Assembly (NCBI GenBank): GCA_026413965.1
Contig: JAOAJY010000001.1
Coordinates: 125,275 to 189,274 of the forward strand
DNA from: Candidatus Micrarchaeota archaeon
Lineage (GTDB): Archaea; Micrarchaeota; Micrarchaeia; Anstonellales; Anstonellaceae
Length of the DNA: 64,000 bases
Direction of reading: 5' to 3'
Shown here: in pieces, positions 4,399 through 43,934 of the stretch
Position numbering within the stretch: the stretch's first letter is position 1
How the letters are laid out: each line of letters starts with the position of its first letter
Notes under the pieces: model-generated
What the model was told of the DNA's origin: nothing
Seen by the model: the letters and a program-made list of their open reading frames with translations, nothing else
Databases searched by the model: none
Position numbers and translations under genes: made by a program

Positions 4399-4420
4399 GA
4401 TAGTATATGATAGATGGGTT

Positions 4421-4975: not shown

Positions 4976-4987
4976 AGCGTAAGCGCC

Positions 4988-5479: not shown

Positions 5480-5481
5480 GC

Positions 5482-6648
5482 TTACACCCTGCTTTTTCTC
5501 AACGATAGGACAAAATCTGCCTCTTCCTCATCAAGCCTAAAGTAGCCTGCGGCGCCTTCCGGATTGCGCCTGCAAAGCTCTGCCAGCAGAGGGAGATAAT
5601 GGCTGGCTTGCTTAATCGAGCAGTGGCAGGCGGCTGCCACTTTCCTCAAAAGGCTGAGCCGCGCAGCCCTTGGCTGCTTGGTTGCGCCCATTTGCCTCAA
5701 AAAATCAGGATAGGCCAGGTTTTTGAATTTTTTGTATGGGCCAAGCTTTGACACTGCCACGCCTGCCGAAGCCAAGTCTTTGGAATACCTCAGGTAGCCC
5801 CAGTGCTGCTGCCTGGAAATCCTGCCGTCAAAAACATCCGCGCGAGAAAGGCAGCTGTACGCCTCCGCTATCTCAAAAGGCTTCTCGTATTCCAGCGGTA
5901 TGTTGTGGGCTATCCAAAGTTTCAAAGTGTCATGCTCGACTTCGGAAAGCAAGGCGGCTTTGCGCGCCTCAGAATAGCTGCCAGCTTTGAGTATTGCCCG
6001 CACGACCTCAAAAGCATTCTTTTCTGAATCTCTGGAAGCGTGCATGTTCCTTCCTTTCAAATCGTTTATCGCTGCCCGGACATCTCCGCCTGAAGCCTGC
6101 GCGATAATTCCCAGATGCTCTTGAGGCATCTCTGAGCCTGCCGCCATGCGCCGCAGCAGAGGCAAAATGGACGAGGCAGGCACTCTGCGCATCTCCAAAG
6201 GAGTGCAGTGCGGCCTTATCTGCGAAAGGCTTTTGCTGTAAAGGGAAGCGGCAGTCAGGATTATGGGCTGGCTGGAAGAGGAGACTAGCCTCAAAATCGC
6301 TGCTGCGCCGCCACGGTCTTCTTTGCCAGAAAGCGAATCGGCATCATCTATCAAAATGAGCCGCAGGTTTCCAAAAAGAGTGGAGGAATTTGAAGCATGC
6401 AAGACTACCCTTTCAACCGTTTCCTGGTCGCGGACGTCCGAGGCATTGAACTCCAAAAGCTCCCAGCCAAACTCTTCCGCAAGCGCATGGGCAAGAAAGG
6501 TTTTGCCTATTCCTGTTGGCCCGAACACCAAAAGCGGCTTTTGCGCCTCGCCTCTGCTCCACTTTTCAGCCCACTCCCTTGCGGACCGAACAGCGTCTGA
6601 ATTGCCCACAAGCTTGCTGGTTGGCTTCTCGCCTGAGGTGGCAGCCAT
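5482..6648 (-). CDS. rfcL: replication factor C large subunit
   Basis: N-terminal AREWAEKWSRGEAQKPLLVFGPTGIGKTFLAHALAEEFGWELLEFNASDVR is typical of archaeal RfcL. Walker B LILIDDAD. Confidence 0.7.
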   Translation of the reverse strand: MAATSGEKPTSKLVGNSDAVRSAREWAEKWSRGEAQKPLLVFGPTGIGKTFLAHALAEEFGWELLEFNASDVRDQETVERVVLHASNSSTLFGNLRLILIDDADSLSGKEDRGGAAAILRLVSSSSQPIILTAASLYSKSLSQIRPHCTPLEMRRVPASSILPLLRRMAAGSEMPQEHLGIIAQASGGDVRAAINDLKGRNMHASRDSEKNAFEVVRAILKAGSYSEARKAALLSEVEHDTLKLWIAHNIPLEYEKPFEIAEAYSCLSRADVFDGRISRQQHWGYLRYSKDLASAGVAVSKLGPYKKFKNLAYPDFLRQMGATKQPRAARLSLLRKVAAACHCSIKQASHYLPLLAELCRRNPEGAAGYFRLDEEEADFVLSLRKSRV

Positions 6649-6651
6649 GCC

Positions 6652-7857
6652 TTGATTATGCCGCCATCAATTTTAAACCGTTGCCGCCTTCTTATCCCTA
6701 TGCTCATCGGATTGGTTGGCGCGCCCAATAAGGGGAAAAGCACCTTCTTCTCAGCAGCCACCATGGTGGATGCTCAGATTGCCAACTACCCATTCACAAC
6801 AATAAGCCCAAACAAAGGAGTGACATACGTCCGCGCCCCGTGCCCGCATGCGCCATTGGGGCTGCCTGGCTGCAACCCAAAAAACAGCAAGTGCATAGGC
6901 GGAACCCGCCTGGTGCCTGTCAATATTGTGGATGTGCCGGGCTTGGTTCCTGGCGCCCACAAAGGAAAGGGGCTTGGCAACAAGTTCTTGGACAGCATAC
7001 GGGAAGCGGACGCGCTGATACAGGTTTTGGACGGGACAGGAAAGACGGATTTGAATGGAAACCCCTGCGATTTTTCGCCGCCTATTGAGGAGGCCAGGTT
7101 CCTGAAAAATGAGCTTGCGATGTGGATTGCGGGGATAATGAAAAGGAGGGAAGGGAAAGCCGCAACGCAAAAAGAAGCGGCAGTTGCGCTTTCTGGGCTC
7201 AAAATCAGCGAGCAGATGATTGCGGATGCAGCAAGAAAATGCGGGCTGGACATAAGCGGAGGCATGCCTGATGAGGAAGGGATTGAGAGGATGGCGCGCG
7301 CAATTGTGGATTTGCGGATGCCTCTTGCAATCGCGTGCAACAAAGCAGACGCCCCTGGAGCTTGCAAAAACTGCAAAGAACTCAGGCAGGCATTAGGCAG
7401 CGGGGTTTTCATAGTCAGCGCAGCTATTGAGCTGGCGCTCCGGAAAGCCAATGAAAAGGGGCTGATAAAATATACGCCTGGCGACTCTGGATTTGAGATT
7501 GCCGGCAATCCAGATGAGAGGCAGCGCGAGGCGCTTGAGAAGATGAGGCTTTTTCTTGCGGAAAATGGAGGGAGCGGAGTCCAGCAAGCCATTGATTGGG
7601 TGGTGTATGGCTTGATTGGAGGCATTGTGGTCTATCCGGTGGAGGATGAGCACAGGCTCTCCAACCATAAAGGAGAGGTCCTGCCAGATGCCTTGTTGGT
7701 GCCAAGGGGCACAACCGTGCTGCAGCTGGCTGAAAGGATACACACCGATTTTGCCAAAAAATTCATAGGCGCAATTGATGCGAAAAGGAAAATCAGGGTT
7801 GGTGGCGACCATTTGCTCTCCAACGGCGATGTTATAAAGATTATTGCGTCTAGGTGA
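6652..7857 (+). CDS. Obg-family GTPase (YchF/OLA1-like) with C-terminal TGS domain
   Basis: G1 GLVGAPNKGKSTFF, G3 DVPGLV, and a C-terminal TGS-like beta-grasp region. The start is probably internal (around 6700). Confidence 0.6.
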   Translation: MIMPPSILNRCRLLIPMLIGLVGAPNKGKSTFFSAATMVDAQIANYPFTTISPNKGVTYVRAPCPHAPLGLPGCNPKNSKCIGGTRLVPVNIVDVPGLVPGAHKGKGLGNKFLDSIREADALIQVLDGTGKTDLNGNPCDFSPPIEEARFLKNELAMWIAGIMKRREGKAATQKEAAVALSGLKISEQMIADAARKCGLDISGGMPDEEGIERMARAIVDLRMPLAIACNKADAPGACKNCKELRQALGSGVFIVSAAIELALRKANEKGLIKYTPGDSGFEIAGNPDERQREALEKMRLFLAENGGSGVQQAIDWVVYGLIGGIVVYPVEDEHRLSNHKGEVLPDALLVPRGTTVLQLAERIHTDFAKKFIGAIDAKRKIRVGGDHLLSNGDVIKIIASR

Positions 7858-7873
7858 AAGGCAGGTGGTTGGC

Positions 7874-9355
7874 ATGAAAAAGGCGAAAGGCTCTGCAGGC
7901 TCGGGCAGCCAAAAACAAAGCAGCAGTGGAAACCAGAATTTTGCAAATTATGTGATAATTGGGGCTGCAGTGGCTGTGCTTGCTATTTTGGCTTTCATGC
8001 TTCTTGGAGAAAAAACGCCTCCTGCTGCCTCGCCTGCCAGCGGAGCTGCAGCGGAGCTTCTCCTGTCTGCTTATGACAAGGGAGCAGGAATGGTTGCCTA
8101 CCAGATGGCTTACTGGCAGGGCGAAAACGACGACATCAGCAACTACACCCTCAAAAGCTCTGGCAAGCAGCGCTTCGCCAAGGTGGAGGGAAGATTTGGC
8201 GCAATTGAGGGATATTTCGCCTATGAGTCTCCAGAGGCAATTTGCCTGGAATACGGCGAGGCAAAGCACTGCGCGGCTGTTGGAAACCACAGCGGAATGG
8301 AGGAGCTTGCAGGCAGCTTGAAAGCGCTTTTCCCAACCCGCAAGGCATATATGGAGCAAAAGGAGGCTCTCTCCAAGCTCATCAAAAACGGCGCCATACA
8401 ATTTGAAGGCGAAATCCTGCAGGAAAATGCAGGCAGCTTTGCAGCCAAAAAAATAGCATACAGGCTGGATTACTCAAACCTCACAGTCCAGCAGCTTGCG
8501 GATTTGGGGATTGACCCTGCCTCGCCAATGCTGAAAGACCTCAAAGAGCAGAAGGTGGCTTTTTGGATTGATGAGAAGACCGGCATGGTTGTCCGGAGCC
8601 TTTCCACCTATCTTGAAAAAGGAATCCCGAAAAAATACGAGACTTTCTATTCGGAGATTTTGCTTTCCCCGCCTGATGAGATTGCCTTGCCGAATGCCAC
8701 CTTGAGCCCCAGCCGCTTTTACCAGTTTTACCAGCAGGCGAAGGCAGATTTTGTGGAGAAGGAGCAGTGCCGCCTCTCTCCAAGGCAAGAGCAGCCGCAG
8801 TGCTACAAGAACTTGGCGTACAAAAAGGACGACCACAAGCTATGCCAGCCTATAGATGAGGAGAATGAGAGGGAGACCTGCATGCTGATAATTGCCCAGA
8901 AAACGAAAAATGACAGCATATGCGGGCTTCTCCGCAAGAGCAAAGACGACTGCTACATAAACGTCGCTGGGCAAAAAGGAGACTGGGAGATTTGCAAGAA
9001 GGTCTCGGATGCAGGCAGGCTTGAGGAGTGCGCCAACGCAGCAGCGCAAGGAGCTAAGATTATTGAGAGGGAAAAGCAAAGCGCCGCGCCTGCGCCTCCT
9101 AAAAATTGCGAAAAGAATGATGACTGCAAAGTCTTTGGCGCGCAGTATTGCGCCCCAAAAAACTCCACTGGCGACTTTGGGAGCGCTGACGAGTTTGCGG
9201 TTTGCTATGCTTCCATACCATGCGTTTGCGAAGAGGGCTACTGCAAGTTCAAAAAAGACGAGGATTTCTACGCATGCATAAGCAAGATAGAAGAGGGGAT
9301 TACCCGAAAATTCATATTGGACCTGATAGCGCAAAGCCAAAACAAAAGCGGATGA
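7874..9355 (+). CDS. membrane-anchored secreted Cys-rich protein
   Basis: Lys/Ser-rich N-terminus followed by a TM helix YVIIGAAVAVLAILAFMLL. The C-terminal 200 aa contain about 24 Cys in spaced pairs. Confidence 0.4.
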   Translation: MKKAKGSAGSGSQKQSSSGNQNFANYVIIGAAVAVLAILAFMLLGEKTPPAASPASGAAAELLLSAYDKGAGMVAYQMAYWQGENDDISNYTLKSSGKQRFAKVEGRFGAIEGYFAYESPEAICLEYGEAKHCAAVGNHSGMEELAGSLKALFPTRKAYMEQKEALSKLIKNGAIQFEGEILQENAGSFAAKKIAYRLDYSNLTVQQLADLGIDPASPMLKDLKEQKVAFWIDEKTGMVVRSLSTYLEKGIPKKYETFYSEILLSPPDEIALPNATLSPSRFYQFYQQAKADFVEKEQCRLSPRQEQPQCYKNLAYKKDDHKLCQPIDEENERETCMLIIAQKTKNDSICGLLRKSKDDCYINVAGQKGDWEICKKVSDAGRLEECANAAAQGAKIIEREKQSAAPAPPKNCEKNDDCKVFGAQYCAPKNSTGDFGSADEFAVCYASIPCVCEEGYCKFKKDEDFYACISKIEEGITRKFILDLIAQSQNKSG

Positions 9356-22148: not shown

Positions 22149-23462
22149 ATGGGGAATCTGGAAGCCTTCTTCAGCAGGTGCCAAGAGGCATGCGAAGAAA
22201 TATTGCGCATGCAAAATCCCCTCGTAGTCCATCACTATGACTGCGACGGCATAGCGTCAGGCTCAATAGCGGCGTGGTGGCTTGAGCAGAATGGAAAGCA
22301 GTATCGCATGGTTTCGGTCAGGAAGCTGGACGAGCTTTTCCTAAGCTCCATCGCCGGCGAGCCTAATTTGGTGTTTGTGGATTTGGGGAGCGGAACCCCT
22401 ATGGTGGAAGAGCTCAAAAGCAGCATCGTCATAATTGACCACCACCAGCCTGCGTTCAAATCCTGCCTGCAGGCAAATCCCCATCTTTTTGGGTTTGATG
22501 GCGGGCATGAAATCTCCGCCTCAGGCTGCGCTCATTTTGTCTTCAACTCTCGGGCAGATTTGGGGGTGGTGGGGGCAGTTGGAGACATCCAATATCCTCT
22601 AAAAAGCCTCAACAGGATAATGCTTGACAAGGCAGTGTCATCCAAGCAGGTGGCAGTCTCCACAGACCTGCGCCTTTTTGGCAGGAATTCCCGACCGCTC
22701 ATCCAGTTCCTCTCATTCTCAGACGACCCTTACCTTCCAGGGCTCACAGGGAACGAGGAGGCTTGCGCCAAGCTCCTCTCAGAGCTTTCCATCAGCCTCA
22801 AAGAAGGGGAAAAATGGCGGGCGTATTCAGACTTGTCTTTGGAGGAAAAAAGGCGGCTGGTCTCCGCTCTTGCGGAGATCGTCTCGCAGCGCATCTCTCC
22901 AGAGGCAGCTTCCAGCCTCACAGGAGAGGTGTATTCTCTGCTGCAGCAGCCGCAAAACACAGAGCTTTCGGATGCTTCTGAATTTGCCACCCTGCTCAAC
23001 GCATGCGGCAGGAACTCCCAGCCGCAGCTGGGCGTGGATGTCTGCCTTTCCAGGCAAGGCGCCTTTGAGTCAGCCCGCCTCCTTTTGGCTGAGCATAGGA
23101 GAAGGCTGCGGGAAGGGATAGAATTTGCCCTCAAAAACGTGCAGGATTTCGGCAAGTTCTTTCTGATAGATGGCCGCGGAGCCATTCCAGACTCCATAAT
23201 CGGCGTGGTTTCAGGCATGATTTTTCCAGGAGGCAAAAGCAAGCCTGTGCTGGGGCTCTCCCTTGAGGAGACTGGCGCGATAAAGCTTTCTGCAAGGGGA
23301 ACTAGGAAGCTTGTTGAGGAAGGGCTCAACTTGGGCAAGATAATGGCAGAAGCAAGCTCTTCGGTCGGAGGGGTTGGCGGAGGGCACAACATAGCGGCAG
23401 GAGCCACCATACCCGCAGACAAGCTTGATGCGTTTGTGCAGGAGTTCGCAAGGAGGCTATGA
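22149..23462 (+). CDS. DHH-family phosphoesterase (RecJ/GAN-like)
   Basis: HHYDCDGIASG (motif I) and IIDHHQP (DHH motif). ATG at 22149 is in frame with the longer listed ORF. Confidence 0.6.
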   Translation: MGNLEAFFSRCQEACEEILRMQNPLVVHHYDCDGIASGSIAAWWLEQNGKQYRMVSVRKLDELFLSSIAGEPNLVFVDLGSGTPMVEELKSSIVIIDHHQPAFKSCLQANPHLFGFDGGHEISASGCAHFVFNSRADLGVVGAVGDIQYPLKSLNRIMLDKAVSSKQVAVSTDLRLFGRNSRPLIQFLSFSDDPYLPGLTGNEEACAKLLSELSISLKEGEKWRAYSDLSLEEKRRLVSALAEIVSQRISPEAASSLTGEVYSLLQQPQNTELSDASEFATLLNACGRNSQPQLGVDVCLSRQGAFESARLLLAEHRRRLREGIEFALKNVQDFGKFFLIDGRGAIPDSIIGVVSGMIFPGGKSKPVLGLSLEETGAIKLSARGTRKLVEEGLNLGKIMAEASSSVGGVGGGHNIAAGATIPADKLDAFVQEFARRL

Positions 23463-25766
23463 CTTCTTGGCTTTTTTGGGCTTCTCAATGCTTTCCTGCA
23501 TCTCCGCGCTTTCCTGGACTTCCTGGCTGACCAAAGAGGAGAAGACTTTTTGCCATTCAGCATCCACCAATTTCCAATCCACCTCTCCTTCTGATGCCTC
23601 CAGCCTCTTGAGCAGGTTGTTTGCTTGCGTGGTGCATTTGAGGACAAAGTCAAGCTCCAAAAACTGCGGGTGGGAATACTTGCGGGAAGCCTCGAGTATC
23701 TGAGAATAAAGCTTGCCTTTGAAAAACGCCTCCATGATGTACTGCGCAGGAGGAATTCCTGTCTCCTCGCATCTTCTCTCAAGAGCAGGAGGGATGAATT
23801 CCAACTTCAGACTCTTTGAGATTTTGCCCAAATCCGCATCAGCAAGAGACTTTGCCTCTGCTTCTGGGAGGTTGGTGAAAAGGCATTTCAGCCTGGTGCT
23901 CTCTATGTCTTCTCCCCTCTCAAGCCTGAAAACCTCCACAAATTTCCTCTCCTTCAAATCAGTCTCATACTGGAAGCCCAGCATCCTGTAAACCTGCGCC
24001 TTTCTCCCAAACCTCACTTTTTTGAGGAAAGAGTACCTGTCAGTTGAGAACATGGAGGCAGCCGGCACCCCAAACACCAGCTCAAGCCTGTCCTGCACGT
24101 CCTTCAACGACTGGGCATGGAGGTTGTAAAGAAGGAATATGCCTGGCTGCGTGTTCAGCAGGTTGATCACTCCCTGCACAGCAAGGCGCGAGCGGATTTC
24201 ATTTATTATGACGCAGGCATCTCCCATGCGCAAGGCCGCATTGGTCATGGAGACCAAGTCAAGCTCGCTGCTCCCTATGTCTTCCCTGTCTGAAGACTGG
24301 ACTTGCACTGCGCCTATGTGGAAACCGCGCTTCCGGTAGGCTTTGGTAGGAATCTCCTCAATATCCTGTATTGGCAATATCCTCTTCTTTGTCCCTATGG
24401 CGGCGATTTTTGCTGAGGTGAAGGCGGTTTTGCCCACTCCTTTTAGCCCAAGGACAGCCTCAGAGCAGCCCAGGCTGACCATGACATCGTCATATCCTGC
24501 AAAAAAAGGGCTCATGGAGCCAAGCTTAAGATACATGGGGTAGGTGAAAGGCTGGTCCCTCATTATCCTAAGCGCAGCTTGAAGCTCCCCGAAAGTCGCA
24601 GGCGGCCTTTGCAGGTGGCATCTCATGGCAAGCCGGGTGAGGACCACATCAATCACCGGCTGGTTCTTGTCAAACCGCTTGGTTCCTTGCGATGCCGCCA
24701 CTATGTTCTTGAACGCATTCTCCATCATCTCATGGTTGTATCTCCAAAGCGTATGGCACAGGCCGTACTTGGCATGCTCTATGTAAATGGGAGAATTCTC
24801 GCCATCGATGTAAATGTCAGTTATGTTGTCCCTGTCCAAAGCCATGTTCTCAATAGGCGCGCCCAAGCCAACCACCCATGCGGCAGCTTCTCTGCCCATG
24901 GCAATTGCCTGCTCTTGCGTTATGGGTATCTTCTCCAAAGTGGCTCGGTCTATGAACGATTGCGCATACTCGCGCGAGCGGTCATCAAAGACAGTCGCAT
25001 AATCCAACGTTTGCCGTATGTCTTTCAAGCCTTCCTGTATTGTAGCCCTAAGCATCTCCTGAAGCTTGGCAGGCAGGTTCTCTATGGTCGGGTTCTCAAT
25101 AGTGTAAAGGTGCGCCTCTCCGCCGGGTATGTCGTAGATTTTCACTTGCAGCCCTCCTGGAAGCTCGTATTGGGCATCCTTTGAGTCAATCAAGACAGCC
25201 TCCTTTGGGACTGAGAGCATGAAGTTTTGTATGAAAAGCAGGCTCTTGAGCCCAAGCAGCGCCAAAAAGGCCGCCCGCAAATCCCCTGTCTTTTGGCAAA
25301 GAAGATAAAGGGAAGACTTGGTGTAGGCTTCAAGTATCCCATTCACCCAAGCCTTGAAGTTCCTGTGCCCCTCAACAAAAACCGCCTTTTCTGGGTAAGG
25401 CTCGCTGTATGACTTCAGCACTTGCGCAGCCACCAGCGGATTCATGAACATGAATTCGTAAAAGTCTTTCAGCGCCTTCTTTCTCTGCTGGTAATAGTCG
25501 TCCTCGGGCCTGCCATAAGTCTTTGGGTTGAGCATTATCGCCTCGACCTGCCTCACAATAGCGTTGTACTCAGAAATTATCGCGCTTTTTTCAGCATCCA
25601 GCTCCACCACTATCTCTTCTTCATATCTCATGGTTTTCCAAGGCTTCAGGAGCTGCGAGGTGACCCTCAGATGCGAGTTTATGCACTGGGGGGTGGTCAA
25701 TCCAAGGCCGCAAGTGGGGCAGTCCATCACCAGGCGCATCCCTTGGTATGAAGGTCGGCAACCCAT
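23457..25766 (-). CDS. highly divergent type II/IV secretion-family ATPase (FlaI/PilB/VirB11-like) with long N- and C-terminal extensions
   Basis: N2-like ITDIYIDGENSPIYIEHAKYG, Walker A GLKGVGKT, Asp box RILPIQDIEEIP, Walker B DACVIINEIRS, and His box LLNTQPGIFLLYNLHAQS, in canonical order. Length 769 aa. Confidence 0.55.
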   Translation of the reverse strand: MGCRPSYQGMRLVMDCPTCGLGLTTPQCINSHLRVTSQLLKPWKTMRYEEEIVVELDAEKSAIISEYNAIVRQVEAIMLNPKTYGRPEDDYYQQRKKALKDFYEFMFMNPLVAAQVLKSYSEPYPEKAVFVEGHRNFKAWVNGILEAYTKSSLYLLCQKTGDLRAAFLALLGLKSLLFIQNFMLSVPKEAVLIDSKDAQYELPGGLQVKIYDIPGGEAHLYTIENPTIENLPAKLQEMLRATIQEGLKDIRQTLDYATVFDDRSREYAQSFIDRATLEKIPITQEQAIAMGREAAAWVVGLGAPIENMALDRDNITDIYIDGENSPIYIEHAKYGLCHTLWRYNHEMMENAFKNIVAASQGTKRFDKNQPVIDVVLTRLAMRCHLQRPPATFGELQAALRIMRDQPFTYPMYLKLGSMSPFFAGYDDVMVSLGCSEAVLGLKGVGKTAFTSAKIAAIGTKKRILPIQDIEEIPTKAYRKRGFHIGAVQVQSSDREDIGSSELDLVSMTNAALRMGDACVIINEIRSRLAVQGVINLLNTQPGIFLLYNLHAQSLKDVQDRLELVFGVPAASMFSTDRYSFLKKVRFGRKAQVYRMLGFQYETDLKERKFVEVFRLERGEDIESTRLKCLFTNLPEAEAKSLADADLGKISKSLKLEFIPPALERRCEETGIPPAQYIMEAFFKGKLYSQILEASRKYSHPQFLELDFVLKCTTQANNLLKRLEASEGEVDWKLVDAEWQKVFSSLVSQEVQESAEMQESIEKPKKAKKS

Positions 25767-29577: not shown

Positions 29578-30474
29578 ATGCTGGAGTTCTTCCAAGCCCC
29601 GCCAGAAGTTCCTGGGATAGAGGCAAGGATTGCTGTGGCAGTGGCTTTCACGGCAGCTGCGGCATACTATGACATGTTCAACAAAAAATGGGTGCCAAAC
29701 GCGCTCCTTTACGCGTTCATCCTTTCCGCCATCGCCGTCAACATAGCTTTTTTTGAGGAGAAGGTTTTCATGCAAGCAGTTGCGTTTGGCGCAGCTGCAT
29801 TTGCGGTTTCCTATCCTTTGTACAAAATGGGGCAGCTTGGAGGGGCAGACGTCTATGCTTATTCAGGAATAGCCCTCTCCATTCCCTATCTTCCTCAGCC
29901 TATTTTTGGGCCTGCCCAGCAGATTCCATACCCATTTCTTTTCTCAGCGCTTGCCCCAACCGGGCTGGCTTTCATTGCCCACATGCTTGTCAGGTTCGTC
30001 CCATACATAGCGGCAAGGCTCAAGTCAGGAGAGGTTCGGATAAGCGCGCAAAAAGCAGCCCCGGCAGCCCTGATTTCGCTTGCGTTCCTGTTTTTCATCT
30101 ATTCGCTGTCCAGCCTGCCAGTGGCTCTCCCCGCCCACTATCTTGCCATTCTTGGCTTTCTTTTTTCAGCGCTGGTTTTCTTCTCATTGTTCAAGGAGGA
30201 AATCAAGGAAAGCATGATAGAGTACCTGCCGCTTTCAAAAATCCAGCCAGAAGATGTGCTTGCTGTTGAGAAAATGGACCAAAAGGCAGTCTTGCGCTTG
30301 AGGCTTAATCCGCTGCTTGACCAAGGAGCAATCAGCAGGATGAAAAAAGCGAAGCTCAAAAAAGCCCCAATATTCACCAAGATGCCATTTTTCTTGCCCT
30401 ACCTTCTCTTCGGGCTCATCATCAGCATCCTTTTTGGGGACATGGTGCATTTCTTCCTCAATTCCGCCTTATAG
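29578..30474 (+). CDS. A24-family prepilin/preflagellin peptidase
   Basis: First catalytic Asp block YYDMFNKKWVPNALL (D x4 K x VPN), second block MGQLGGADVYAYSGIAL (GGxD), and a polytopic membrane topology. Confidence 0.55.
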   Translation: MLEFFQAPPEVPGIEARIAVAVAFTAAAAYYDMFNKKWVPNALLYAFILSAIAVNIAFFEEKVFMQAVAFGAAAFAVSYPLYKMGQLGGADVYAYSGIALSIPYLPQPIFGPAQQIPYPFLFSALAPTGLAFIAHMLVRFVPYIAARLKSGEVRISAQKAAPAALISLAFLFFIYSLSSLPVALPAHYLAILGFLFSALVFFSLFKEEIKESMIEYLPLSKIQPEDVLAVEKMDQKAVLRLRLNPLLDQGAISRMKKAKLKKAPIFTKMPFFLPYLLFGLIISILFGDMVHFFLNSAL

Positions 30475-33515: not shown

Positions 33516-34523
33516 ATGATAAATGTGGCGGTGAACGGGTTTGGAAGAATCGGAAAGCTTGTTGTGAGGGCGGCTTTTGAGCGCGGCTTTGTGGGCAAAA
33601 AATTCGAGATAGTTGCGATAAATGACACCCACGACCCAAAGCTTTCAGCCCATCTGTTCAAATACGACTCCACGCAAGGGAGGTTTTCAGGAAAGGTGAG
33701 CGCAGAGCCAGGCAAGATGCAGATAAACGGCTATGACATAAAGCTGGTCTCATCGCGCGACCCCTCAACAATCAAGTGGGGCGAGATGGGGGTGGATTTG
33801 GTCTTGGAATGCACAGGCGCATTCACAGACAGGGCAGGAGCCTCCAAGCATCTGCAGTCAGGGGCAAAAAAGGTCCTGATTTCCGCCCCATGCAAAGGAG
33901 GCGAGGCGGACGCCACCATCGTCATCGGAGTCAATGACGAAAAATACGACAAAAAGAAGCACCACATAGTGTCAATAGGCTCATGCACCACAAACTGCCT
34001 TGCCCCAGTGGCAAAGGTGGTTGATGACGCATTCGGGATAGAGGCTGGGTTCATGACCACCTGCCATGCTTACACAAACGACCAGCTCATACTTGACGCA
34101 AACCATAAGGACTTCAGGCGCGCAAGGGCAGGCGCAATAAACATAATCCCCACCTCCACAGGCGCTGCGAAAGCCATAGGCGAGGTGATACCGAAGCTGA
34201 AAGGGAAGATGGACGGGCTGGCTCTTCGGGTGCCCATCCCAGTTGGCTCAATAAACGACCTTTCTTGCCTTCTTTCAAAGGAGGCAAGCGCAGAGGAGCT
34301 GAACGCGGCTGTCAAAAAAGCCGCGGAAGGAAAGATGAAAGGAATACTGGAATACACCGAAGACCCGATTGTTTCCTCAGACATAGTCCACAATCCAGCA
34401 AGCTCCATATTCGACGCCCTTTCCACAAAGGCAATCGGCAAGACGGCGAAGCTTCTGTCATGGTATGACAATGAATGGGGCTTTTCCAACAGGATGGTGG
34501 AAATGGCGGCAAAGATGTTCTGA
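33516..34523 (+). CDS. gap: glyceraldehyde-3-phosphate dehydrogenase, class I (bacterial/eukaryotic type)
   Basis: NGFGRIGKLVVRAA, catalytic SCTTNCLAP and C-terminal WYDNEWGFS. Confidence 0.85.
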   Translation: MINVAVNGFGRIGKLVVRAAFERGFVGKKFEIVAINDTHDPKLSAHLFKYDSTQGRFSGKVSAEPGKMQINGYDIKLVSSRDPSTIKWGEMGVDLVLECTGAFTDRAGASKHLQSGAKKVLISAPCKGGEADATIVIGVNDEKYDKKKHHIVSIGSCTTNCLAPVAKVVDDAFGIEAGFMTTCHAYTNDQLILDANHKDFRRARAGAINIIPTSTGAAKAIGEVIPKLKGKMDGLALRVPIPVGSINDLSCLLSKEASAEELNAAVKKAAEGKMKGILEYTEDPIVSSDIVHNPASSIFDALSTKAIGKTAKLLSWYDNEWGFSNRMVEMAAKMF

Positions 34524-34672
34524 CGATGGGATTAAAAATTCTCGGATGCCCAATGGCATGCATTCTGGAATTTTAAGAAAAGTAGGCCTGCGCAAAAAAG
34601 CGCGCAGGCAAGGCGACCAGTTTTCTGTCCAAGACAGAAAGAAAAGACGGGCATTTCATAATGTTAGGTGTT

Positions 34673-34690
34673 GCATTATATATAAATGTT
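34673..34690 (+). promoter_or_regulatory. candidate TATA box (ATTATATATAAATG) upstream of coiled-coil gene
   Basis: Strong AT-rich box followed by AGAGGG 8 nt upstream of an in-frame TTG at 34732. Confidence 0.3.
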
Positions 34691-34731
34691 TGCATGCATT
34701 TAAACATAAAATACAACAAGAGGGTAATTTC

Positions 34732-35514
34732 TTGGCGGAAGAGAAAAAAGAAAAGCAGGCGCTTTTGGAGAGCCTTCCAGACGGCTTGAAGGAGATAGCG
34801 GATATACCTCAAGAAAAGCTCCTCACGCTGCCTGCGAAAGAGCAAGAGAAGCAAGAGCTCCTGCCCTCTCAGCAGCAAAAGCCTGCGCTTCCTGAAAGGC
34901 CCCGCACCCAAAAAGAAAAAGAGCTGGACGAGCTTATAGCCGCCCGCCAATCCATAATTGAGCAGCTTAAGGAGAAAAACCCAAAGCTTGCCGAGGCGCG
35001 CAAGCAAATAGCCTCCCTTCTGCCATCCCTCAAAGGCAAAGGAGCTGGCAAAGCAGTGGAGCTTATGCGGGAGGAAGAGAGGATAGAATTCTCAATCGCA
35101 ACCGAAGCATACACTCCCAAGCAGGAGCGGGAGCTTCTCAAGCGCCTGAGAGCCATAAGGGCAGAGCTTTCGCAGCACAAGGAGCTTGACGCGATAAGAA
35201 AGCAGGTGGAGGAGAAAAGAGCAGAGGTCAGGGCTTTGGCCTCTGAGATAAAGGAGTTGGAGAAAAAGCTTGCCGAGGCGCGCGCCGCCTGCGACGCAAA
35301 ATACGCAGAAGTTCTTGCGGAAAGGAAAGCTGCTTATGAAAAAAGGCAGCGCGAAAGGGCACAAAAGAGGCAGGAGCGCCTTTCTAGCCTTCTTGAAGCC
35401 AGGAAGAGAAAGCGGGAAAAGGAAATGGCAAAATACATGAAAGCATTTGACGACACAGTCTCAATGGATGAGATAGTGCAGATAGAGCGCAAAGAGAAAA
35501 AGAGCAAAAAATAA
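34732..35514 (+). CDS. Lys/Glu-rich coiled-coil protein (start uncertain)
   Basis: Heptad-rich KE sequence. The listed ORF begins inside the GAPDH 3' end. TTG at 34732 has an SD-like AGAGGG. The last 37 coding nt plus stop form repeat copy 1. Confidence 0.35.
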   Translation: MAEEKKEKQALLESLPDGLKEIADIPQEKLLTLPAKEQEKQELLPSQQQKPALPERPRTQKEKELDELIAARQSIIEQLKEKNPKLAEARKQIASLLPSLKGKGAGKAVELMREEERIEFSIATEAYTPKQERELLKRLRAIRAELSQHKELDAIRKQVEEKRAEVRALASEIKELEKKLAEARAACDAKYAEVLAERKAAYEKRQRERAQKRQERLSSLLEARKRKREKEMAKYMKAFDDTVSMDEIVQIERKEKKSKK

Positions 35515-35570: not shown

Positions 35571-36392
35571 ATGCGTGGCTACTCCTTAAAAAAAGCTCAA
35601 GGAAGCACGGAATACCTAGGTATAATGATAATCGTCCTGGTGATCGCACTTGTTTCTATATCAATAATGAACGATGCATTTGTCAAGACATCAGATGTTA
35701 AGGTATCCGAAAGCTCTGCCTATTGGCAGTCTGCTTCTCCGATTGCAATTCTGGAATCTAGGGCAGATGCTTCTGGCTTGACATTTAAGGTTAGGAATAA
35801 TGGGTTAGAAAGGATCGAAATAAATGGGATTCTTTCTTCTGGCTCGCAAATTCCCCTTTCACCTGCCATTTCTCTTTCCCCTGGCGAAGAAAGATTGATT
35901 TCTAATATAGCTGGATTGAACCTTACAGCAGGCAGAAAAAAGGTAGATGTTTTTTCACTCGGTTTTTCCTATACGGTTCGCTTCGGCTCAATGTCCATGA
36001 CCAAGATCCAGACAGGCCCCCCAGTCACCTCCATAGTATGTGGTGATGCCGATTGCTCTAGCCTCGGCAGCTCTTCTGGTTGCGGAATAGGGTGCGGATT
36101 TGGCTATACCTGTTGCAGCTATGAGCCTGGGCAGTATGCCTGTCTATTTGCAAGCGGAGGGACACTATGCAGCGGATTTGAAGTGTGCAGCGAAGGAAAG
36201 TTTTACTGCGAGCCAATGGGCCAGTGTGTCCCCCTAGGAACAATCTGCAATAATTGCATGGGCAGCTGCGGAGAGGGGCAAGTGTGCTGTGTTTGCGATG
36301 CCCAATGTGTTCCTGAAGGGCAGTGTGCTTGCGAACACTGCTTGGAAATCCAATGCTCAGGCGGGAACTGCATCTGCGTTTCTCAAGGATGA
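35571..36392 (+). CDS. archaeal type IV pilin-like protein (class III signal, DUF361-like QGSTEYL motif) with Cys-rich C-terminal domain
   Basis: MRGYSLKKAQGSTEYLGIMIIVLVIALVSISI is a prepilin-peptidase signal plus hydrophobic helix. The C-terminal ~115 aa contain about 30 Cys (CGIGCGFGYTCCSYEPGQYAC...CVCDAQCVPEGQCACEHC). Confidence 0.6.
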   Translation: MRGYSLKKAQGSTEYLGIMIIVLVIALVSISIMNDAFVKTSDVKVSESSAYWQSASPIAILESRADASGLTFKVRNNGLERIEINGILSSGSQIPLSPAISLSPGEERLISNIAGLNLTAGRKKVDVFSLGFSYTVRFGSMSMTKIQTGPPVTSIVCGDADCSSLGSSSGCGIGCGFGYTCCSYEPGQYACLFASGGTLCSGFEVCSEGKFYCEPMGQCVPLGTICNNCMGSCGEGQVCCVCDAQCVPEGQCACEHCLEIQCSGGNCICVSQG

Positions 36393-38410: not shown

Positions 38411-39274
38411 TTGGCTCAAGCAGCAGCCAAAGGCTTTCTCTCAGCGCTCTTTGCCTTTTTGCTTGCCTCCGGCTTATCCCTAAGCGTCATGGCGCAAAAG
38501 CTGCTTGACGCCGAAGCCTATATGGCTTCAATTGAGAAATACGCTTCCTATTCTGAAATGAGGAATCACTTGGCGGCATCCATCGCAAGAAGCTTCCCGC
38601 CAAATTTGAGGCAGGGCGCGCAAGAAGAGATAAGAAGCGCCATAACTGAGGATTATCTGCGCAGCCAAGTGCGAAATGCAGTGGGCTCTGCCCTCGACTA
38701 TCTTTCCTCAAAATCAGACAGGCTTTATTTGCGGATGGACCTCTCTCCAATCAAAGAAAAGCTGAAAGAAAGCCAGCTGCCTGAGTTGAGGGTTGCCTCT
38801 CAAGCCTTTCCTGCCAGTCTTGATTTGGCTGAGGAAGAGGGGAACTTGGAGCAGATGAAGCAGCTGGAAAGCGCGCGCCAGCAGATAAGCCAGGCAAACA
38901 AAATAAAGCACCTGCTTGTCGCAGCCTCTATCCTGCCTCTTGCGTTGCTTTTCTTTTTCCATGAAGGCTATAGAGGCTGGCTGCATGGGTGCGGAAGCCT
39001 TCTTTTGAAGGCAGGCGTATCTTGCCTATCTTTAAGCGCAGTCCTTTTTGCCATGCCTTTTGCTCTGCCAGAAATCCTTCCGTCCATGCAAAATTCATCG
39101 CAGGGAGCTGAAACCGCCCGCCTTGCCGGGCAGATATTGGGGGAAGTTTTTTCGCAGGCAGGAGTTGAGCTTGCGCTGCATTCCGCCCCAATCATTTTGG
39201 CAGGCGGAGCCCTCATGCTCCTGCTCAAGAAGCCCGAAACGAATAATAATCCAAGCTCCGAAGCTTCTGCATGA
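38411..39274 (+). CDS. hypothetical membrane protein
   Basis: TTG start. N-terminal TM helix plus C-terminal TM helices. Its stop overlaps the start of the giant downstream gene. Confidence 0.35.
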   Translation: MAQAAAKGFLSALFAFLLASGLSLSVMAQKLLDAEAYMASIEKYASYSEMRNHLAASIARSFPPNLRQGAQEEIRSAITEDYLRSQVRNAVGSALDYLSSKSDRLYLRMDLSPIKEKLKESQLPELRVASQAFPASLDLAEEEGNLEQMKQLESARQQISQANKIKHLLVAASILPLALLFFFHEGYRGWLHGCGSLLLKAGVSCLSLSAVLFAMPFALPEILPSMQNSSQGAETARLAGQILGEVFSQAGVELALHSAPIILAGGALMLLLKKPETNNNPSSEASA

Positions 39275-42200
39275 TGATGGGGTGTCCAAAAAGGCACCTT
39301 GCCTTTCTTGCGAGCCTTCTTCTTTTCGGCTTAGCTTTCCCATCCGGGCTTTCAGGCTGCTTTTCCCCATCGCCTCTTGAAAGGTTCTGGGAGAGCCCAG
39401 GGTATTTCGAGTCCAACCCGCACGTTTCCAATTTGGGCATTTTCAAGTTCTATTCCTACGCATTTGACAATTCGACAAAAAGCCTGGAGCTTGAGCAAAC
39501 AGCGCTGCTGTCGCAGCAGGAAATCTTTTCTGCCCTAAGCCTCGAGCAAAGGGAAGAATTCTTCCCAGCCATAAAAGAGCTTGAGGCATCGCAAAGCCAC
39601 CTTTCGAAGGCAAAAGCGCATGCCGCAGAAGCCCAGAGGCTTTCCTCAGAGTCCCAAAAGCTCGCCTCGCATATTTTTGACCAAACCCAAATCGCCCTCC
39701 TTTACCTCCCCTATCCATTTTCCAACTTGCCGGCAATATGGCTTTTTCTCAAGTCCCAGGCAGCCTCTGAGTATATCTCAAAATACCCTGCAACTCTGCA
39801 AGCCGCATATTCCCACTCGGCAAGCGCCTATGACTCTGCCCAAAAAGCAGCCTATCTTGCAGCCTCCCTTGCGGACAAAAAAGCCTCGGCATTGCTGTTT
39901 GCAGGGGCAGGAGACGCCAAATACTCAGGGAAGGCGAAAAGCGCCTATTACCGCTACCAGGAGCTTCTTTCCTCAGGCAGGCTTTGCGGCAAGCAAAGGG
40001 CAGAAAGCATACGCGGCTATTTTTCATCCAGCCCCAGCATGCCTGACTTTTCGCAGGCAGGGTTCGGCCAGCATCTGAGGCAGATTGCAGGCAAAGGCAA
40101 CAATTCCTCGCTTTTCCAGCTTGCTTTGCTTTATTCCGAGCTTTCCTCTGCCCATGCCGCCATGCAAGAGGAGTACTTTGAGATGAGGGCAAGCGCGCTG
40201 GAATCCCAAAGGCAGCTTGAGCTCCACATTTCCCTGCTGGAGTCCGAAAGGCTGGACCTGATAGACAGCCTATCAAATGAGGCTGGACAAAAGAGCCTTT
40301 CAGCAGGGACAGGCTTTGCCGGGCTCTCCAGCGGCCTGAAAATAGCCAAAGACAGGCTCTTCTCATCGCAGCACCTTCTTTCGTCATCCGAATCCATCGC
40401 AAAATCAAAAGATTACCAAGGCTACCTTTCGGATGCAATCCACAAAGCCTCGCAAGCCAAAGAGCTCTCCCAAAGCTCGCTTTCTTCTCTGTCCAAAATA
40501 AGGCAAGACGCAATTTTTCTTGCGGACGGCAAAAGAAAAGAGGCGGAGCAATCCATATTAGACGCTGAAAGCTATTTCTCAAATGGAAGCCAGGCAAGCT
40601 CAAAAATGCGGGCGCAGTCTCTTCTCATGCTTCAGGATGCGAAAAAGAAGTTCAGCCTTGCGTCACAGGCAAAGCGGATAGGGGAGCAGTTTGTCCTTTA
40701 TTCAGAGGCAAAAGCCATGGCAGAAGCTTCGCGCCAGGCTTTGCTCACTGGAAGCCTGGCTTCCGCGAAAGAGCAAGCCTTCAAGGAGGTCCAGGCGCTT
40801 TCTGATGCCATCTTGAAGGCAGAAAAGGACGGGCTGGATGTCTCCTTTGAGAAGTCCAAGCTTGCAGAGTACCAGCAGCTTTTGCAGCTTGTTGATTCTG
40901 CGGAGGCAATGCTTGCATTAAGCGAAGCTTCCAGAAGCGAGCATCAAGGGCTGATTTTGAGGCTTTCAGGAAAATACCGGCATCTCTCCGACGGATTCCC
41001 GCAGCTGCAAATGCTTGTGCTGGAAATAAGAAAAAAAGACCCGCTTTTCTTGCCGGAGTTTGACAGCGTGTCCAAATACTTCAAGGAGGGGGGTTTGGAC
41101 GCCAAGGAGGCTGCAGGCAAGCTGAAGGAAATAGAGGCTTCCATCAGCGAGCTATTATCCAAGGCAAAAAGCAGAATACCTCAGCACCTCTCGCAGGTGC
41201 TCTCGGAGAATGCAGAAGCCATAGAGCTAAGGGAGCCGTTCTCGATAGGCAAGCCAAGCAAATACAAGGCAAGCATCCACACCCAAAACACAGCAGAGAT
41301 TGGCTACAGCGGCACTGTGGTGTTTTTTGCCAGGACTTCCTCTGCCCTCTCAACCCAGGACTTTTCAGGAGGAAGCCCAATCAAAGACGCTTACCAAAAA
41401 GAAGGCAAAACCGCAATAGAGATTTCCGGAGTTTCTCCAAAGCAAACCCTGTCTTTCTTCTTTGAGAAATTTGAGCAGCCGGTCCAGGCAGTCTCCCTAA
41501 AGCCATTTTGCCATTCCGCTACTCAGGAGGAGGCTTCAGCAGGGGCAGAGCTTCGTTTTGTGTCAGAAAAGCCGCTGGAATCGGCTTTTTTTGCCCTGCC
41601 TGCCCCAGAAAGCCTGGCAAGCCCATCAGCATCATATCTTGGCTTCCCTGCTGACTACATAAGGCAAGCCCCAGGAGGGATGCTTGAGGGGAGAATATCC
41701 CAAATCCAAAAGGGCGATGGGAGGCTGGAAATAAGCTATAAAGTCATGAAGCCATTTGATGCCAAAGTTGTCGAGGAGAGCTCCAAAAGCCTAGGGGCAG
41801 GAAGGCAAGCCATCCGCATGTCTTTGGTGGTTGAGAACGCGGCTCTTGATTGCGCACAAGCTTCAGTCTCTTTCCAGCTTCCTTATTTTGGGATTGAGAA
41901 CTTCTCCGTCGCAAGCCCAAGCGGCAGTGCCATATTGTCCAAGCAGGTTGCGCAAAACTCCGCAGGCTCTGAAGCAAAATTTGCCTTTTCCCCTCTTGCC
42001 AAGGGCTCAAAAGCGCATTTTGAGCTGCATTTTGAGGTCCAAAACAAATCTGAAGCTTTAAGCCACGCTATCCGGATGCTTGAGCTTTCAGCTTTGCACT
42101 CAAACAGCACCCTCCAGCATTTGGCTTTGGAGCAAGCGCGGCTTCTTGCAGAGGCAAACAAGACTGATGAGGCGCTGCTTCTTTCCCAGTCAGCCTACCG

Positions 42201-43317
42201 CCTTCAAAGCCAAAGCAGCCCTCTTGACATCATCTCCTACCAAGAGAGCCTGGAGCATGCCCAAGCTCTCCTCTCTTCGGCAAAATCCTCCCAAAAAGCA
42301 ATGCGCCAATCCTCATCAATGCATCTTGAGCTGTCAAAGGCAATAGCAGACCTTGAGTCTTCAATCTCGTCAGCCTCTTTTCTGGCTGAGCGCGGAAGCT
42401 ACTCAAAGGCGGCAAGCCAGCTTAGGGAATCTTCTGGCAGCTTCCAATCTTTCATAGCCCAGCTTGCCTCAAAATCCGCAAATGACGCATTGGAAGGGTA
42501 TTCAAAGGCAAAAGAGAGGCAGGCGGACCAAGCGCTGCTTTCATCCTGCTCGCAGGCAATTTCCCAGGGAAGCCGCCTGTTTTCCCAAGGCGAAATCCTA
42601 AAGTCGCTTGAGCGCTTCGCAGAAGCCCAAAGCATCCTGTCTGAAATTTCCGGCATCCAGGAAGCTCAAGAGAAAGAGCTGGCTTTGCAGGCAGAAGAGA
42701 TAGGGAAAAAATTCCAAGCCCTAAAAGAAGAGTTTGAAAGCAAGCTTTCGTCATATTCTCCGCAGTACTCCTCATTGTCCCAGCAAAGCAGAAGGAAGCT
42801 TCCAATAACCCCAAGCGAGGCGCAGGCAAGGCTCGCGGAGGCGCAAAGGAAGATTTCCTCAGCCTCAAAATACAAGGATGCCAAGCAGCGGCTGCAAGAG
42901 GCGAGCCAATCCTACATGCTTTTGGAGTCTGCGGACAAGTCGCTTTCAGATGCAATAAGCCAATTGCGCTCCTCAGCAGAGTCATCGCTTAAGGTGGCAA
43001 GAATAGCTTTGGCTGAGGCGCAAGCAAAGTCCTCAAGCCAGGACAGCTCCCTGCTGGCTCAGATGGAGAAAGAGGCTGAGAAGGCAGAGGAGGCTTACGC
43101 CAACGGGCTTTATGCGGATTCCCTTTCGTCTTCTGACAGGGTGATAAGCGCGGCAAACGCGCTGTTGTCATCAAAAAAGCAAGATGGCATCCCCAAGGCA
43201 GAATTGCTTGCAGCCATCTCCGCCATATTCATTATTGCGGCTGCCTATTTCCTGCTCTCAAAAGCCAACAGGGGCAGCCAGAAAAAAGAGAAGAAAAGCA
43301 TCCCCAAGTCCGATTAG
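39271..43317 (+). CDS. giant (1348 aa) low-complexity coiled-coil surface protein with N-terminal signal/lipobox-like peptide and C-terminal TM anchor
   Basis: N-terminus MMMGCPKRHLAFLASLLLFGLAFPSGLSGC. Body rich in Ser/Ala/Leu/Gln/Glu/Lys. C-terminus LLAAISAIFIIAAAYFLLSKANRGSQKKEKK. Confidence 0.5.
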   Translation: MMMGCPKRHLAFLASLLLFGLAFPSGLSGCFSPSPLERFWESPGYFESNPHVSNLGIFKFYSYAFDNSTKSLELEQTALLSQQEIFSALSLEQREEFFPAIKELEASQSHLSKAKAHAAEAQRLSSESQKLASHIFDQTQIALLYLPYPFSNLPAIWLFLKSQAASEYISKYPATLQAAYSHSASAYDSAQKAAYLAASLADKKASALLFAGAGDAKYSGKAKSAYYRYQELLSSGRLCGKQRAESIRGYFSSSPSMPDFSQAGFGQHLRQIAGKGNNSSLFQLALLYSELSSAHAAMQEEYFEMRASALESQRQLELHISLLESERLDLIDSLSNEAGQKSLSAGTGFAGLSSGLKIAKDRLFSSQHLLSSSESIAKSKDYQGYLSDAIHKASQAKELSQSSLSSLSKIRQDAIFLADGKRKEAEQSILDAESYFSNGSQASSKMRAQSLLMLQDAKKKFSLASQAKRIGEQFVLYSEAKAMAEASRQALLTGSLASAKEQAFKEVQALSDAILKAEKDGLDVSFEKSKLAEYQQLLQLVDSAEAMLALSEASRSEHQGLILRLSGKYRHLSDGFPQLQMLVLEIRKKDPLFLPEFDSVSKYFKEGGLDAKEAAGKLKEIEASISELLSKAKSRIPQHLSQVLSENAEAIELREPFSIGKPSKYKASIHTQNTAEIGYSGTVVFFARTSSALSTQDFSGGSPIKDAYQKEGKTAIEISGVSPKQTLSFFFEKFEQPVQAVSLKPFCHSATQEEASAGAELRFVSEKPLESAFFALPAPESLASPSASYLGFPADYIRQAPGGMLEGRISQIQKGDGRLEISYKVMKPFDAKVVEESSKSLGAGRQAIRMSLVVENAALDCAQASVSFQLPYFGIENFSVASPSGSAILSKQVAQNSAGSEAKFAFSPLAKGSKAHFELHFEVQNKSEALSHAIRMLELSALHSNSTLQHLALEQARLLAEANKTDEALLLSQSAYRLQSQSSPLDIISYQESLEHAQALLSSAKSSQKAMRQSSSMHLELSKAIADLESSISSASFLAERGSYSKAASQLRESSGSFQSFIAQLASKSANDALEGYSKAKERQADQALLSSCSQAISQGSRLFSQGEILKSLERFAEAQSILSEISGIQEAQEKELALQAEEIGKKFQALKEEFESKLSSYSPQYSSLSQQSRRKLPITPSEAQARLAEAQRKISSASKYKDAKQRLQEASQSYMLLESADKSLSDAISQLRSSAESSLKVARIALAEAQAKSSSQDSSLLAQMEKEAEKAEEAYANGLYADSLSSSDRVISAANALLSSKKQDGIPKAELLAAISAIFIIAAAYFLLSKANRGSQKKEKKSIPKSD

Positions 43318-43934
43318 CCTAGCCTGGCAATCTCGGATTCTATGGCTTGCTTGAATTTCCCAAAAGGCTGCGCACCCATTATCTTGGTTTCCCCAATCTT
43401 GAAGGTGGGCGTCGCAGCAATCCCTTCCTTTTCTGCCTCTTCCATGTCTTTAAGCACCTTCTCCCTCCCCCTGCCGGATGCCACGCAAGATCGGAATTCC
43501 TCCATGTCAACCCCAATTTCTGATGCGTGCTTTTGCAGGTCCGAGTCCGAAAGCGCATGCTGGCTTGAAAAGAGCCTGTCGTGCATCTCCCAGAATTTGC
43601 CCTGCTCCTCGGCGCAGGCAGCCGCAATCGCAGCAGGCATGGCTCGGGGATGGATTCCAACAAGCGGATAGTGCCGGAAGACCAGCTTCACCTCATTAGG
43701 ATAAGCCCGCAACACCTCCTCAACAACAGGCTGCGCTTTAGCGCAGAATGGGCATTCGAAGTCCGAATACTCATAAATCACGATTTTCGCACTCGGGCTT
43801 CCGCGGTATGCTCTCCCATTTTCCATTCCTGCGCTTATGGGCGCGGCTGCGCACCCAAAAAGCAAAGCTGCCATAAGAGCCAGCAGCGCAAAATTCCTCA
43901 TGCATGCAGATAGGGCAAAATCGATTAAAACCAT
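43314..43934 (-). CDS. DsbA-like thiol:disulfide oxidoreductase with N-terminal membrane anchor/signal
   Basis: Thioredoxin active site FECPFCAKAQP with a hydrophobic N-terminus. Confidence 0.65.
   Translation of the reverse strand: MVLIDFALSACMRNFALLALMAALLFGCAAAPISAGMENGRAYRGSPSAKIVIYEYSDFECPFCAKAQPVVEEVLRAYPNEVKLVFRHYPLVGIHPRAMPAAIAAACAEEQGKFWEMHDRLFSSQHALSDSDLQKHASEIGVDMEEFRSCVASGRGREKVLKDMEEAEKEGIAATPTFKIGETKIMGAQPFGKFKQAIESEIARLG

Follow-up and report, generated by a model that had tools for sequence, protein, structure and literature searches.

As obligate symbionts, Micrarchaeota meet their hosts through the cell envelope. We know of no protein in these archaea to which a part in host contact or in cytoplasmic bridging has been assigned. 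Among the archaeal envelope proteins that span the pseudo-periplasm, tetrabrachion of Staphylothermus marinus is a surface glycoprotein of ~1500 amino acids (aa) with a signal peptide and a C-terminal anchor, built on a parallel coiled coil of four helices, continuous over 70 nm and regularly repeated, and carrying beta-rich arms. SlaB of the Sulfolobales comprises three beta-sandwiches, a 132-aa helix and a transmembrane (TM) helix at residues 448-470 (PMC10903991). SLP_Mh, the MSTP-like surface-layer (S-layer) protein of Micrarchaeota, is glycosylated and has no recognised anchor; Gfrerer et al. found no anchor for the Micrarchaeum S-layer protein and proposed a second, TM-bearing stalk protein (bioRxiv 10.1101/2021.04.28.441871). 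In the related ARM-1, cryo-electron tomography revealed three discrete densities that extend between S-layer and membrane (PMC11329633). In bacteria, PS2 (CspB) of Corynebacterium glutamicum is a helical-bundle S-layer protein with a stalk and a C-terminal TM helix (bioRxiv 10.1101/2024.05.28.596244). Here, we analysed a stretch of 64,000 nucleotides from a Candidatus Micrarchaeota archaeon (hereafter the window, whose numbering is used throughout), and in it the forward-strand open reading frame (ORF) 39271..43317, which encodes a protein of 1348 aa, referred to below as the giant protein. Its sequence places it in a previously undescribed family, almost confined to Micrarchaeota, and strongly indicates a type I membrane surface glycoprotein of the cell envelope. 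We tentatively read it, with a probability of about 0.4, as a stalk or spacer that would stand between membrane and MSTP-type S-layer in the manner of SlaB.

The giant protein has the same parts as SlaB (S. acidocaldarius Saci_2354, PDB 8QOX), namely a Sec signal, tandem beta-sandwiches, a helical region and a C-terminal TM helix. The SlaB order of parts is found in its C-terminal half (aa ~653-1348), an N-terminal helical module of 560 aa being extra. SlaB is N-glycosylated, membrane-anchored and located under the S-layer, as the giant protein would also be. In the 475-aa SlaB, a single helix of 132 aa runs without a break and assembles into a trimeric coiled coil, whereas the helices modelled here are at most 59 aa long and separated by turns. 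Tetrabrachion resembles the giant protein in size, signal peptide and C-terminal anchor, but the latter lacks a long continuous helix and heptad or undecad periodicity. PS2 is likewise mainly helical, with a C-terminal TM anchor, but is bacterial, ~500 aa long and devoid of a beta-sandwich module; a PDB profile search and Foldseek gave no sequence or fold match between PS2 and the giant protein. SLP_Mh (PF05123/TIGR01564) shares phylum and compartment with the giant protein but belongs to an unrelated family, being beta-rich, ~980 aa long and without a C-terminal TM helix. Neither the giant protein nor its relatives had a Pfam or NCBIfam match to S_layer_N or MSTP-like families (PF05123, TIGR01564, TIGR01567).

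A giant protein family of the Micrarchaeota

Word-indexed searches returned three full-length orthologues, which align end to end with the giant protein at 34-36% identity, and still just three when a 99-sequence profile was used. Two further orthologues were found in species-representative genomes (Micrarchaeia and Micrarchaeota metagenome-assembled genomes, MAGs), and a metagenome scan with a five-sequence alignment yielded four loci. The family became visible only in an exhaustive hidden Markov model (HMM) search with a profile of aa 30-1150, which identified 136 cluster representatives. Of these, 83 have E < 1e-10, and most are 1200-1500 aa long and collinear over the whole profile. A first-pass annotation, made from the sequence alone, had proposed looking for orthologues in symbiotic archaea, and it is there that the family lies: the 14 named members all come from Candidatus Micrarchaeota, Micrarchaeia or Norongarragalinales, except one from a Candidatus Iainarchaeum sp., and all are annotated as "hypothetical protein". 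A single copy of the giant gene was present at each of the loci examined.

Family-wide counts given below are based on an alignment of 99 full-length members (A6), which have a median size of 143 kDa and an acidic median pI of 5.0. Conserved positions occur all along the chain, including W40, NP50, GAGxxxYSG 212-220, E301, YLADAI 385-390, G471, AEKDGxDVxxE 517-527, G616, N673, G791, G815, A968, Y1162 and Y1281. Conservation is even, only aa 50-200 being more variable. Searches of Pfam and NCBIfam with the giant protein, with its isolated beta module (E <= 10) and with 36 diverse members gave nothing recurrent; the protein on its own matched no PDB sequence, and the literature searched held no description of the family. 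What appears to be new is the family, while its kind, a giant, C-terminally anchored archaeal envelope glycoprotein, is familiar.

The ORF is uninterrupted by any stop and encodes a 146.5-kDa protein with a pI of 7.1; an identical protein, annotated as hypothetical, is on record from a Candidatus Micrarchaeota MAG (N3F07_00910). The window is that of an ordinary archaeal chromosome, with genes for PolB, GAPDH, geranylgeranyl reductase, PyrB/PyrI, SRP54, GatDE, H+-PPase and SufBD. As first noted from the sequence, composition is biased: 65% of the residues are S, A, L, E, K or Q, S and Q each occur twice as often as in 14 other proteins of the window, and sequence entropy is 3.80 bits, as compared with 3.83-4.14 (pooled, 4.08) in those proteins. 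The first-pass annotation had raised the possibility that the ORF is an assembly artefact, such as a collapsed repeat or a frameshifted reading. Short of the read level, this is refuted: the DNA is free of tandem repeats and the protein of internal ones, the homologues at 34-36% identity align without frame breaks, and more than 100 full-length homologues from independent assemblies are collinear. Judged from these sequences, the ORF is therefore a real gene.

The protein opens with MMMGCPK, its first three codons being ATGs. The third of these, at 39277, is the start common to the homologues and to the NCBI gene model, and gives a protein of 1346 aa. The 4-nt overlap with the upstream gene described in the first-pass annotation does exist in the DNA, as an ATGA shared with the ORF 38411..39274, but since homologues and the NCBI model begin at the third ATG, this overlap is probably incidental and non-functional.

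Sequence marks of a type I membrane glycoprotein

At the C-terminus, hydropathy identifies a stretch at aa 1306-1333, with its best 19-mer at 1312-1330 (Kyte-Doolittle (KD) value, 2.46), followed by SKANRGSQKKEKKSIPKSD. Hydropathy, the AlphaFold2 model and the family agree on a TM helix at aa 1309-1332 (43195..43266, forward strand), and the sequence ends with a Lys-rich, predicted cytoplasmic tail, KANRGSQKKEKKSIPKSD, encoded with the stop codon by 43267..43317 on the same strand. A C-terminal TM helix is present in 97 of the 99 family members, and the first 15 residues that follow it are net positive in 96% of the family, so that the anchor recognised at first sight, followed by a positively charged tail, holds family-wide. 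The opposite end carries a hydrophobic stretch at aa 9-31, and 80 of the 99 members have a strongly hydrophobic N-terminus, confirming the signal peptide that had also been recognised. This Sec-type signal peptide covers aa 1-~27 (39271..39351, forward strand), with the n-region MMMGCPKRH, the h-region LAFLASLLLFGLAF and the c-region PSGLS. Signal peptide and net-positive tail together strongly indicate a type I topology, N-out/C-in, which would place ~1280 aa outside the cell.

The mature N-terminal segment, aa 28-90 (39352..39540, forward strand), contains Cys30, the family motif (R)FW...NP, a small beta-hairpin and the invariant sequon FDN67ST. Sequons are 1.44x more frequent than expected (~10.6 per protein), and three of them, N67 (FDNST), N278 and N945, occupy invariant positions in the four closest sequences, which suggests N-glycosylation at these sites. 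Four cysteines, C30, C239, C747 and C861, are conserved in the close subfamily and could form two disulfides, while another subfamily has its cysteines elsewhere. With its signal, TM helix, positive tail, sequons and cysteines, the giant protein bears the sequence marks of the general class of type I membrane-anchored extracellular glycoproteins. The initial description of a giant exported envelope protein of a small-genome (DPANN) archaeon is upheld by these marks and by a DsbA-like neighbour described below; the roles suggested with it, namely tethering, attachment between cells or an S-layer-associated element, may still apply.

That description also included a lipobox-like signal. LSGC, which ends at Cys30, does fit the lipobox pattern [LVI][ASTVI][GAS]C, but only in the window protein and a few others. 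Cys30 is conserved in the subfamily within the motif SFS[DE]C[FVY]; of the 22 close orthologues that have this Cys, 18 carry E or D at position -1 and four carry G or S, and one close orthologue is devoid of it. Typical contexts among orthologues are AFA/EATVQDC, SFA/SLTEC and SAA/SFSDC, distant members have AxA-type sites and no Cys, and Cys30 is counted as absent in the wider family (25% of sequences). The lipobox is thus not conserved, and the lipoprotein idea fails with it. The acidic residue at -1 and the orthologue contexts make signal peptidase I the better reading, with cleavage most likely predicted a few residues ahead of Cys30. Separately, the n-region motif M[GR]CxG[RG]HL (39271-39300) is kept among orthologues that share only ~35% identity, which is unusual for an n-region; it includes a Cys at position 3, counted from the start supported by the homologues.

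Predicted architecture of the ectodomain

The ectodomain was modelled with AlphaFold2 as two overlapping halves, using four-sequence alignments. The N-terminal half (predicted local distance difference test score (pLDDT), 79.6; predicted TM-score (pTM), 0.57) is almost all helical beyond the signal peptide and a brief stretch with a beta-hairpin. The C-terminal half (pLDDT, 74.1) comprises strands at aa ~665-924, helices at 926-1300 and the TM helix at 1309-1332. The models delimit three modules. Helical module I, aa 91-652 (39541..41226, forward strand), consists of ~20 helices joined by turns, five of them 46-54 residues long, and carries the family motifs GAGxxxYSG, YLADAI, G471, AEKDGxDVxxE and G616 located above, together with MxxEY at 298-302. 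Foldseek returned no significant match for this ~560-aa module, the best E values being 0.24 in PDB and 0.14 among the viral models of BFVD; the long-helix matches obtained with the N-terminal half (dynein stalks in PDB, tape-measure proteins in BFVD) were rejected as non-significant. Helical module II, aa 926-1300 (42046..43170, forward strand), is membrane-proximal, with helices of up to 59 residues and a pLDDT of ~90, and contains the conserved sequon N945 and the motifs Y1162 and G.Y1281ADS. Profile-profile comparison of the two helical regions (aa 80-645 and 926-1305) gave a weak likeness (hhalign probability, 74%; E, 2.9e-5); an old duplication is weakly suggested but not claimed, and a shared helical composition could also account for the likeness.

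Between the helical modules, AlphaFold2 places a tandem beta-sandwich module at aa ~653-925 (41227..42045, forward strand). Its internal tandem duplication is detected by hhalign self-comparison (probability, 92.6%), and it bears the subfamily-conserved Cys747 and Cys861 and the family motifs N673(P), G791 and G815. The first-pass annotation had described about 1250 residues dominated by S/A/L/Q/E/K and of heptad character between signal and anchor. The compositional bias of this region stands, but residues ~660-925 are the beta-sandwich module, which had been missed, and the heptad character did not withstand analysis: in both helical regions, Fourier analysis at periods of 3.5, 3.67 and 7 gave z <= 1.4 relative to shuffled sequences, and the modelled helices, 15-59 residues long, are broken by turns. 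Absent heptad signal, broken helices and an intervening beta module all speak against a coiled-coil fibre, and the models point to helical bundles flanking the beta module instead.

The top Foldseek matches of the beta module in PDB are Ost1/ribophorin I of the yeast and human oligosaccharyltransferases (E, 3e-7 to 7e-5), closely followed by the M1 aminopeptidase N-domain and mu2 adaptin. The luminal domain of Ost1/ribophorin I (6EZN, 6C26, 6S7T, 8B6L) is also a tandem beta-sandwich in a type I membrane protein, but the TM-scores are low (0.11-0.17), identity is ~11%, the context differs, and over 900 helical residues are left without a counterpart. In addition, Pfam Ribophorin_I (PF04597) matched neither the isolated beta module nor any of the 36 family members.

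Genomic context

In the closest relatives, the region is syntenic, with genes for a prepilin peptidase, PolB, GAPDH, geranylgeranyl reductase, a metallo-beta-lactamase (MBL)-fold protein, a variable gene, the giant gene, a convergent DsbA-like protein and PyrB. In the window, the variable position is occupied by a 287-aa multi-TM protein (38411..39274, forward strand). This protein is not a conserved partner: relatives have a tetratricopeptide repeat (TPR) protein at this position (loci L002 and L003) or an unrelated 313-aa protein (a third contig), and in locus L001 the giant gene is preceded by PyrB and a helix-turn-helix (HTH) protein and followed by a different gene. An operon partnership with the upstream membrane protein gene was therefore rejected.

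Downstream, an exported DsbA-like thiol:disulfide oxidoreductase (43314..43934, reverse strand), with a CPFC motif and a signal ending in LLFGC, is convergent with the giant gene and is kept beside it in some relatives. In the distant subfamily represented by L005-L007, the neighbours are Pelota and a divergent exported thioredoxin-like protein with a CSAC motif. This thioredoxin-like protein (LLSGC/VFGC), encoded divergently upstream (L005, 2003-2683, reverse strand; L006, 3490-4086, reverse strand), is non-orthologous to the DsbA-like neighbour. An extracytoplasmic thiol:disulfide oxidoreductase, in non-orthologous forms in two distant subfamilies, is thus the sole recurring theme among the neighbours. 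It fits an ectodomain in need of disulfides, for which the DsbA-like protein is a plausible helper. In the window and the related loci, S-layer, pilus and glycosylation genes were not consistently linked, and no AglB or Sec gene adjoined the giant gene.

In L007, a frameshift, either a sequencing error or the mark of a pseudogene, breaks the family member (3094-6639) into two ORFs that start at 3094 and 5906. Several other ORFs of the window were recorded in passing. A 273-aa protein (35571-36392, forward strand) combines a class III (type IV pilin-like) signal, KKAQGSTEYLG, with a C-terminal half that is very rich in Cys; the prepilin peptidase (Peptidase_A24) gene (29578-30474, forward strand) lies 5 kb upstream of it, and L003 has a protein with a class III signal in the same region. 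A 349-aa Lys/Glu-rich, coiled-coil-like ORF (34465-35514, forward strand) has only weak, chance-level Pfam matches; its true start is probably further downstream, as at its 5' end it overlaps with the last part of the GAPDH gene (33516-34523). A 769-aa ORF (23457-25766, reverse strand) without Pfam match contains a GVGKT Walker-A-like motif and may be a divergent secretion- or pilus-type ATPase. Finally, a 503-aa ORF (7844-9355, forward strand), with an N-terminal TM anchor, a Cys-rich ectodomain and no Pfam match, encodes an uncharacterised envelope protein.

Discussion

The strut interpretation is based on three points: the SlaB-like order of parts, a profile match to the SlaB helix, and the S-layer protein of Micrarchaeota, without a recognised anchor, together with the densities seen in ARM-1. 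The SlaB match is the best obtained in PDB by profile search; it covers the membrane-proximal helix (8qox_B residues 350-443; E, 1.3e-5), at the equivalent position before the TM helix. The features described above strongly indicate that the giant protein is exported via its Sec-type signal peptide, most likely removed by signal peptidase I a few residues before Cys30, and that the single C-terminal TM helix with its short Lys-rich inner tail anchors the ~1280-aa ectodomain. In the models, this ectodomain is made of the 560-aa helical module of long antiparallel helices, the ~270-aa tandem beta-sandwich and, by the membrane, the 375-aa helical module. In the proposed mechanism, the giant protein would stand on the membrane as a strut, determining how wide the pseudo-periplasm is and holding or organising the MSTP-type S-layer, with which the beta-sandwich and N-terminal helical modules would make contact.

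Several points weigh against this interpretation. The SlaB match falls in an S/L/N-rich, low-complexity helix, has low posterior accuracy, and is nearly equalled by a de novo designed SNARE-like protein (E, 1.1e-4), so it is not evidence of homology. The slaA and slaB genes are adjacent, whereas no S-layer gene adjoins the giant gene in the window or in eight related loci. The modelled helices are broken into hairpins, with neither a single long stalk helix nor a heptad signal. Lastly, a plain strut would leave unexplained the 560-aa N-terminal module and a conserved hydrophobic loop within it. The probability not given to the readings discussed here is assigned to functions not yet thought of.

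The loop, aa 137-166 (QIALLYLPYPFSNLPAIWLFLKS; 39679..39768, forward strand), lies between two long helices and is hydrophobic, Pro-rich and charge-poor: Pro is 3x enriched, charge is half the usual, and pLDDT drops below 50 at aa 139-153. Across the family, it constitutes the third hydrophobic peak, beside the signal peptide and the TM helix. It could be a buried interface, a dip into the cell's own membrane, or a contact with another membrane. The last of these options underlies an unlikely alternative, in which the ectodomain would reach through or beyond the S-layer and bind the host, the loop, at the tip of a helical hairpin, inserting in the host membrane like an adhesin or a fusion loop and so helping to form the cytoplasmic bridges reported between DPANN cells and their hosts. 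The confinement of the family to symbiotic DPANN lineages, the long helical hairpins of a type I membrane protein, and the features of the loop itself are in favour of such a contact device, as is the fact that no DPANN fusogen is described in the literature searched. However, architecture and length are kept across the phylum though hosts differ, as opposed to known DPANN adhesins, which are lineage-specific and modular, such as the Mia14 surface proteins (PMC5498576). Moreover, Foldseek searches of PDB and BFVD with the N-terminal half gave no structural match to viral or cellular fusogens, and the loop is only moderately hydrophobic (median maximum KD(19), 1.26; above 1.6 in 20% of members) and could be buried. 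We consider still less probable the more specific proposal of a conserved host-engagement machine of Micrarchaeota and Iainarchaeota, whose fusion-loop-like tip at 137-166 would enter the host membrane and help to open bridges.

It is also rather improbable that the giant protein builds a lattice or coat of its own, that is, a second, mainly alpha-helical surface layer held by its own C-terminal TM helix, as in PS2. Its size, the acidity of the family, its sequons and its C-terminal TM helix are typical of S-layer proteins, and PS2 demonstrates that helical-bundle S-layers with such an anchor exist; but the abundant MSTP-type S-layer protein already explains the hexagonal lattice of Micrarchaeota, and no S-layer family is matched. 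An extracytoplasmic scaffold or chaperone for secreted glycoproteins, acting beside the glycosylation and secretion machinery in the manner of Ost1/ribophorin I, appears very unlikely: the best fold matches of the beta module do come from type I membrane proteins of this kind, but with the low TM-scores, near-equal competing folds, missing Pfam match and unaccounted helical residues described above, and with no AglB or Sec gene nearby. Even fainter is the case for a coiled-coil fibre of lipoprotein type, attached through a lipidated N-terminal Cys at one end and the C-terminal TM helix at the other, as the LSGC of the window protein and the LLFGC of the neighbouring DsbA-like protein are opposed by the acidic -1 residues, the Cys-less orthologue and distant members, and the lack of heptad periodicity. 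A spurious or misassembled ORF can be dismissed, with nothing in its favour beyond biased composition.

The giant family is large, phylum-wide, apparently single-copy per locus examined, and present in no family library searched, which makes it a concrete candidate for the missing S-layer anchor of Micrarchaeota and, less likely, for their contact machinery. It is also useful as a lineage marker. Should it prove to be a fusion device, it would be the first protein with such a fold put forward as an archaeal cell-cell fusogen or membrane bridge; should it be an ordinary strut, it would add a new family of a familiar kind.

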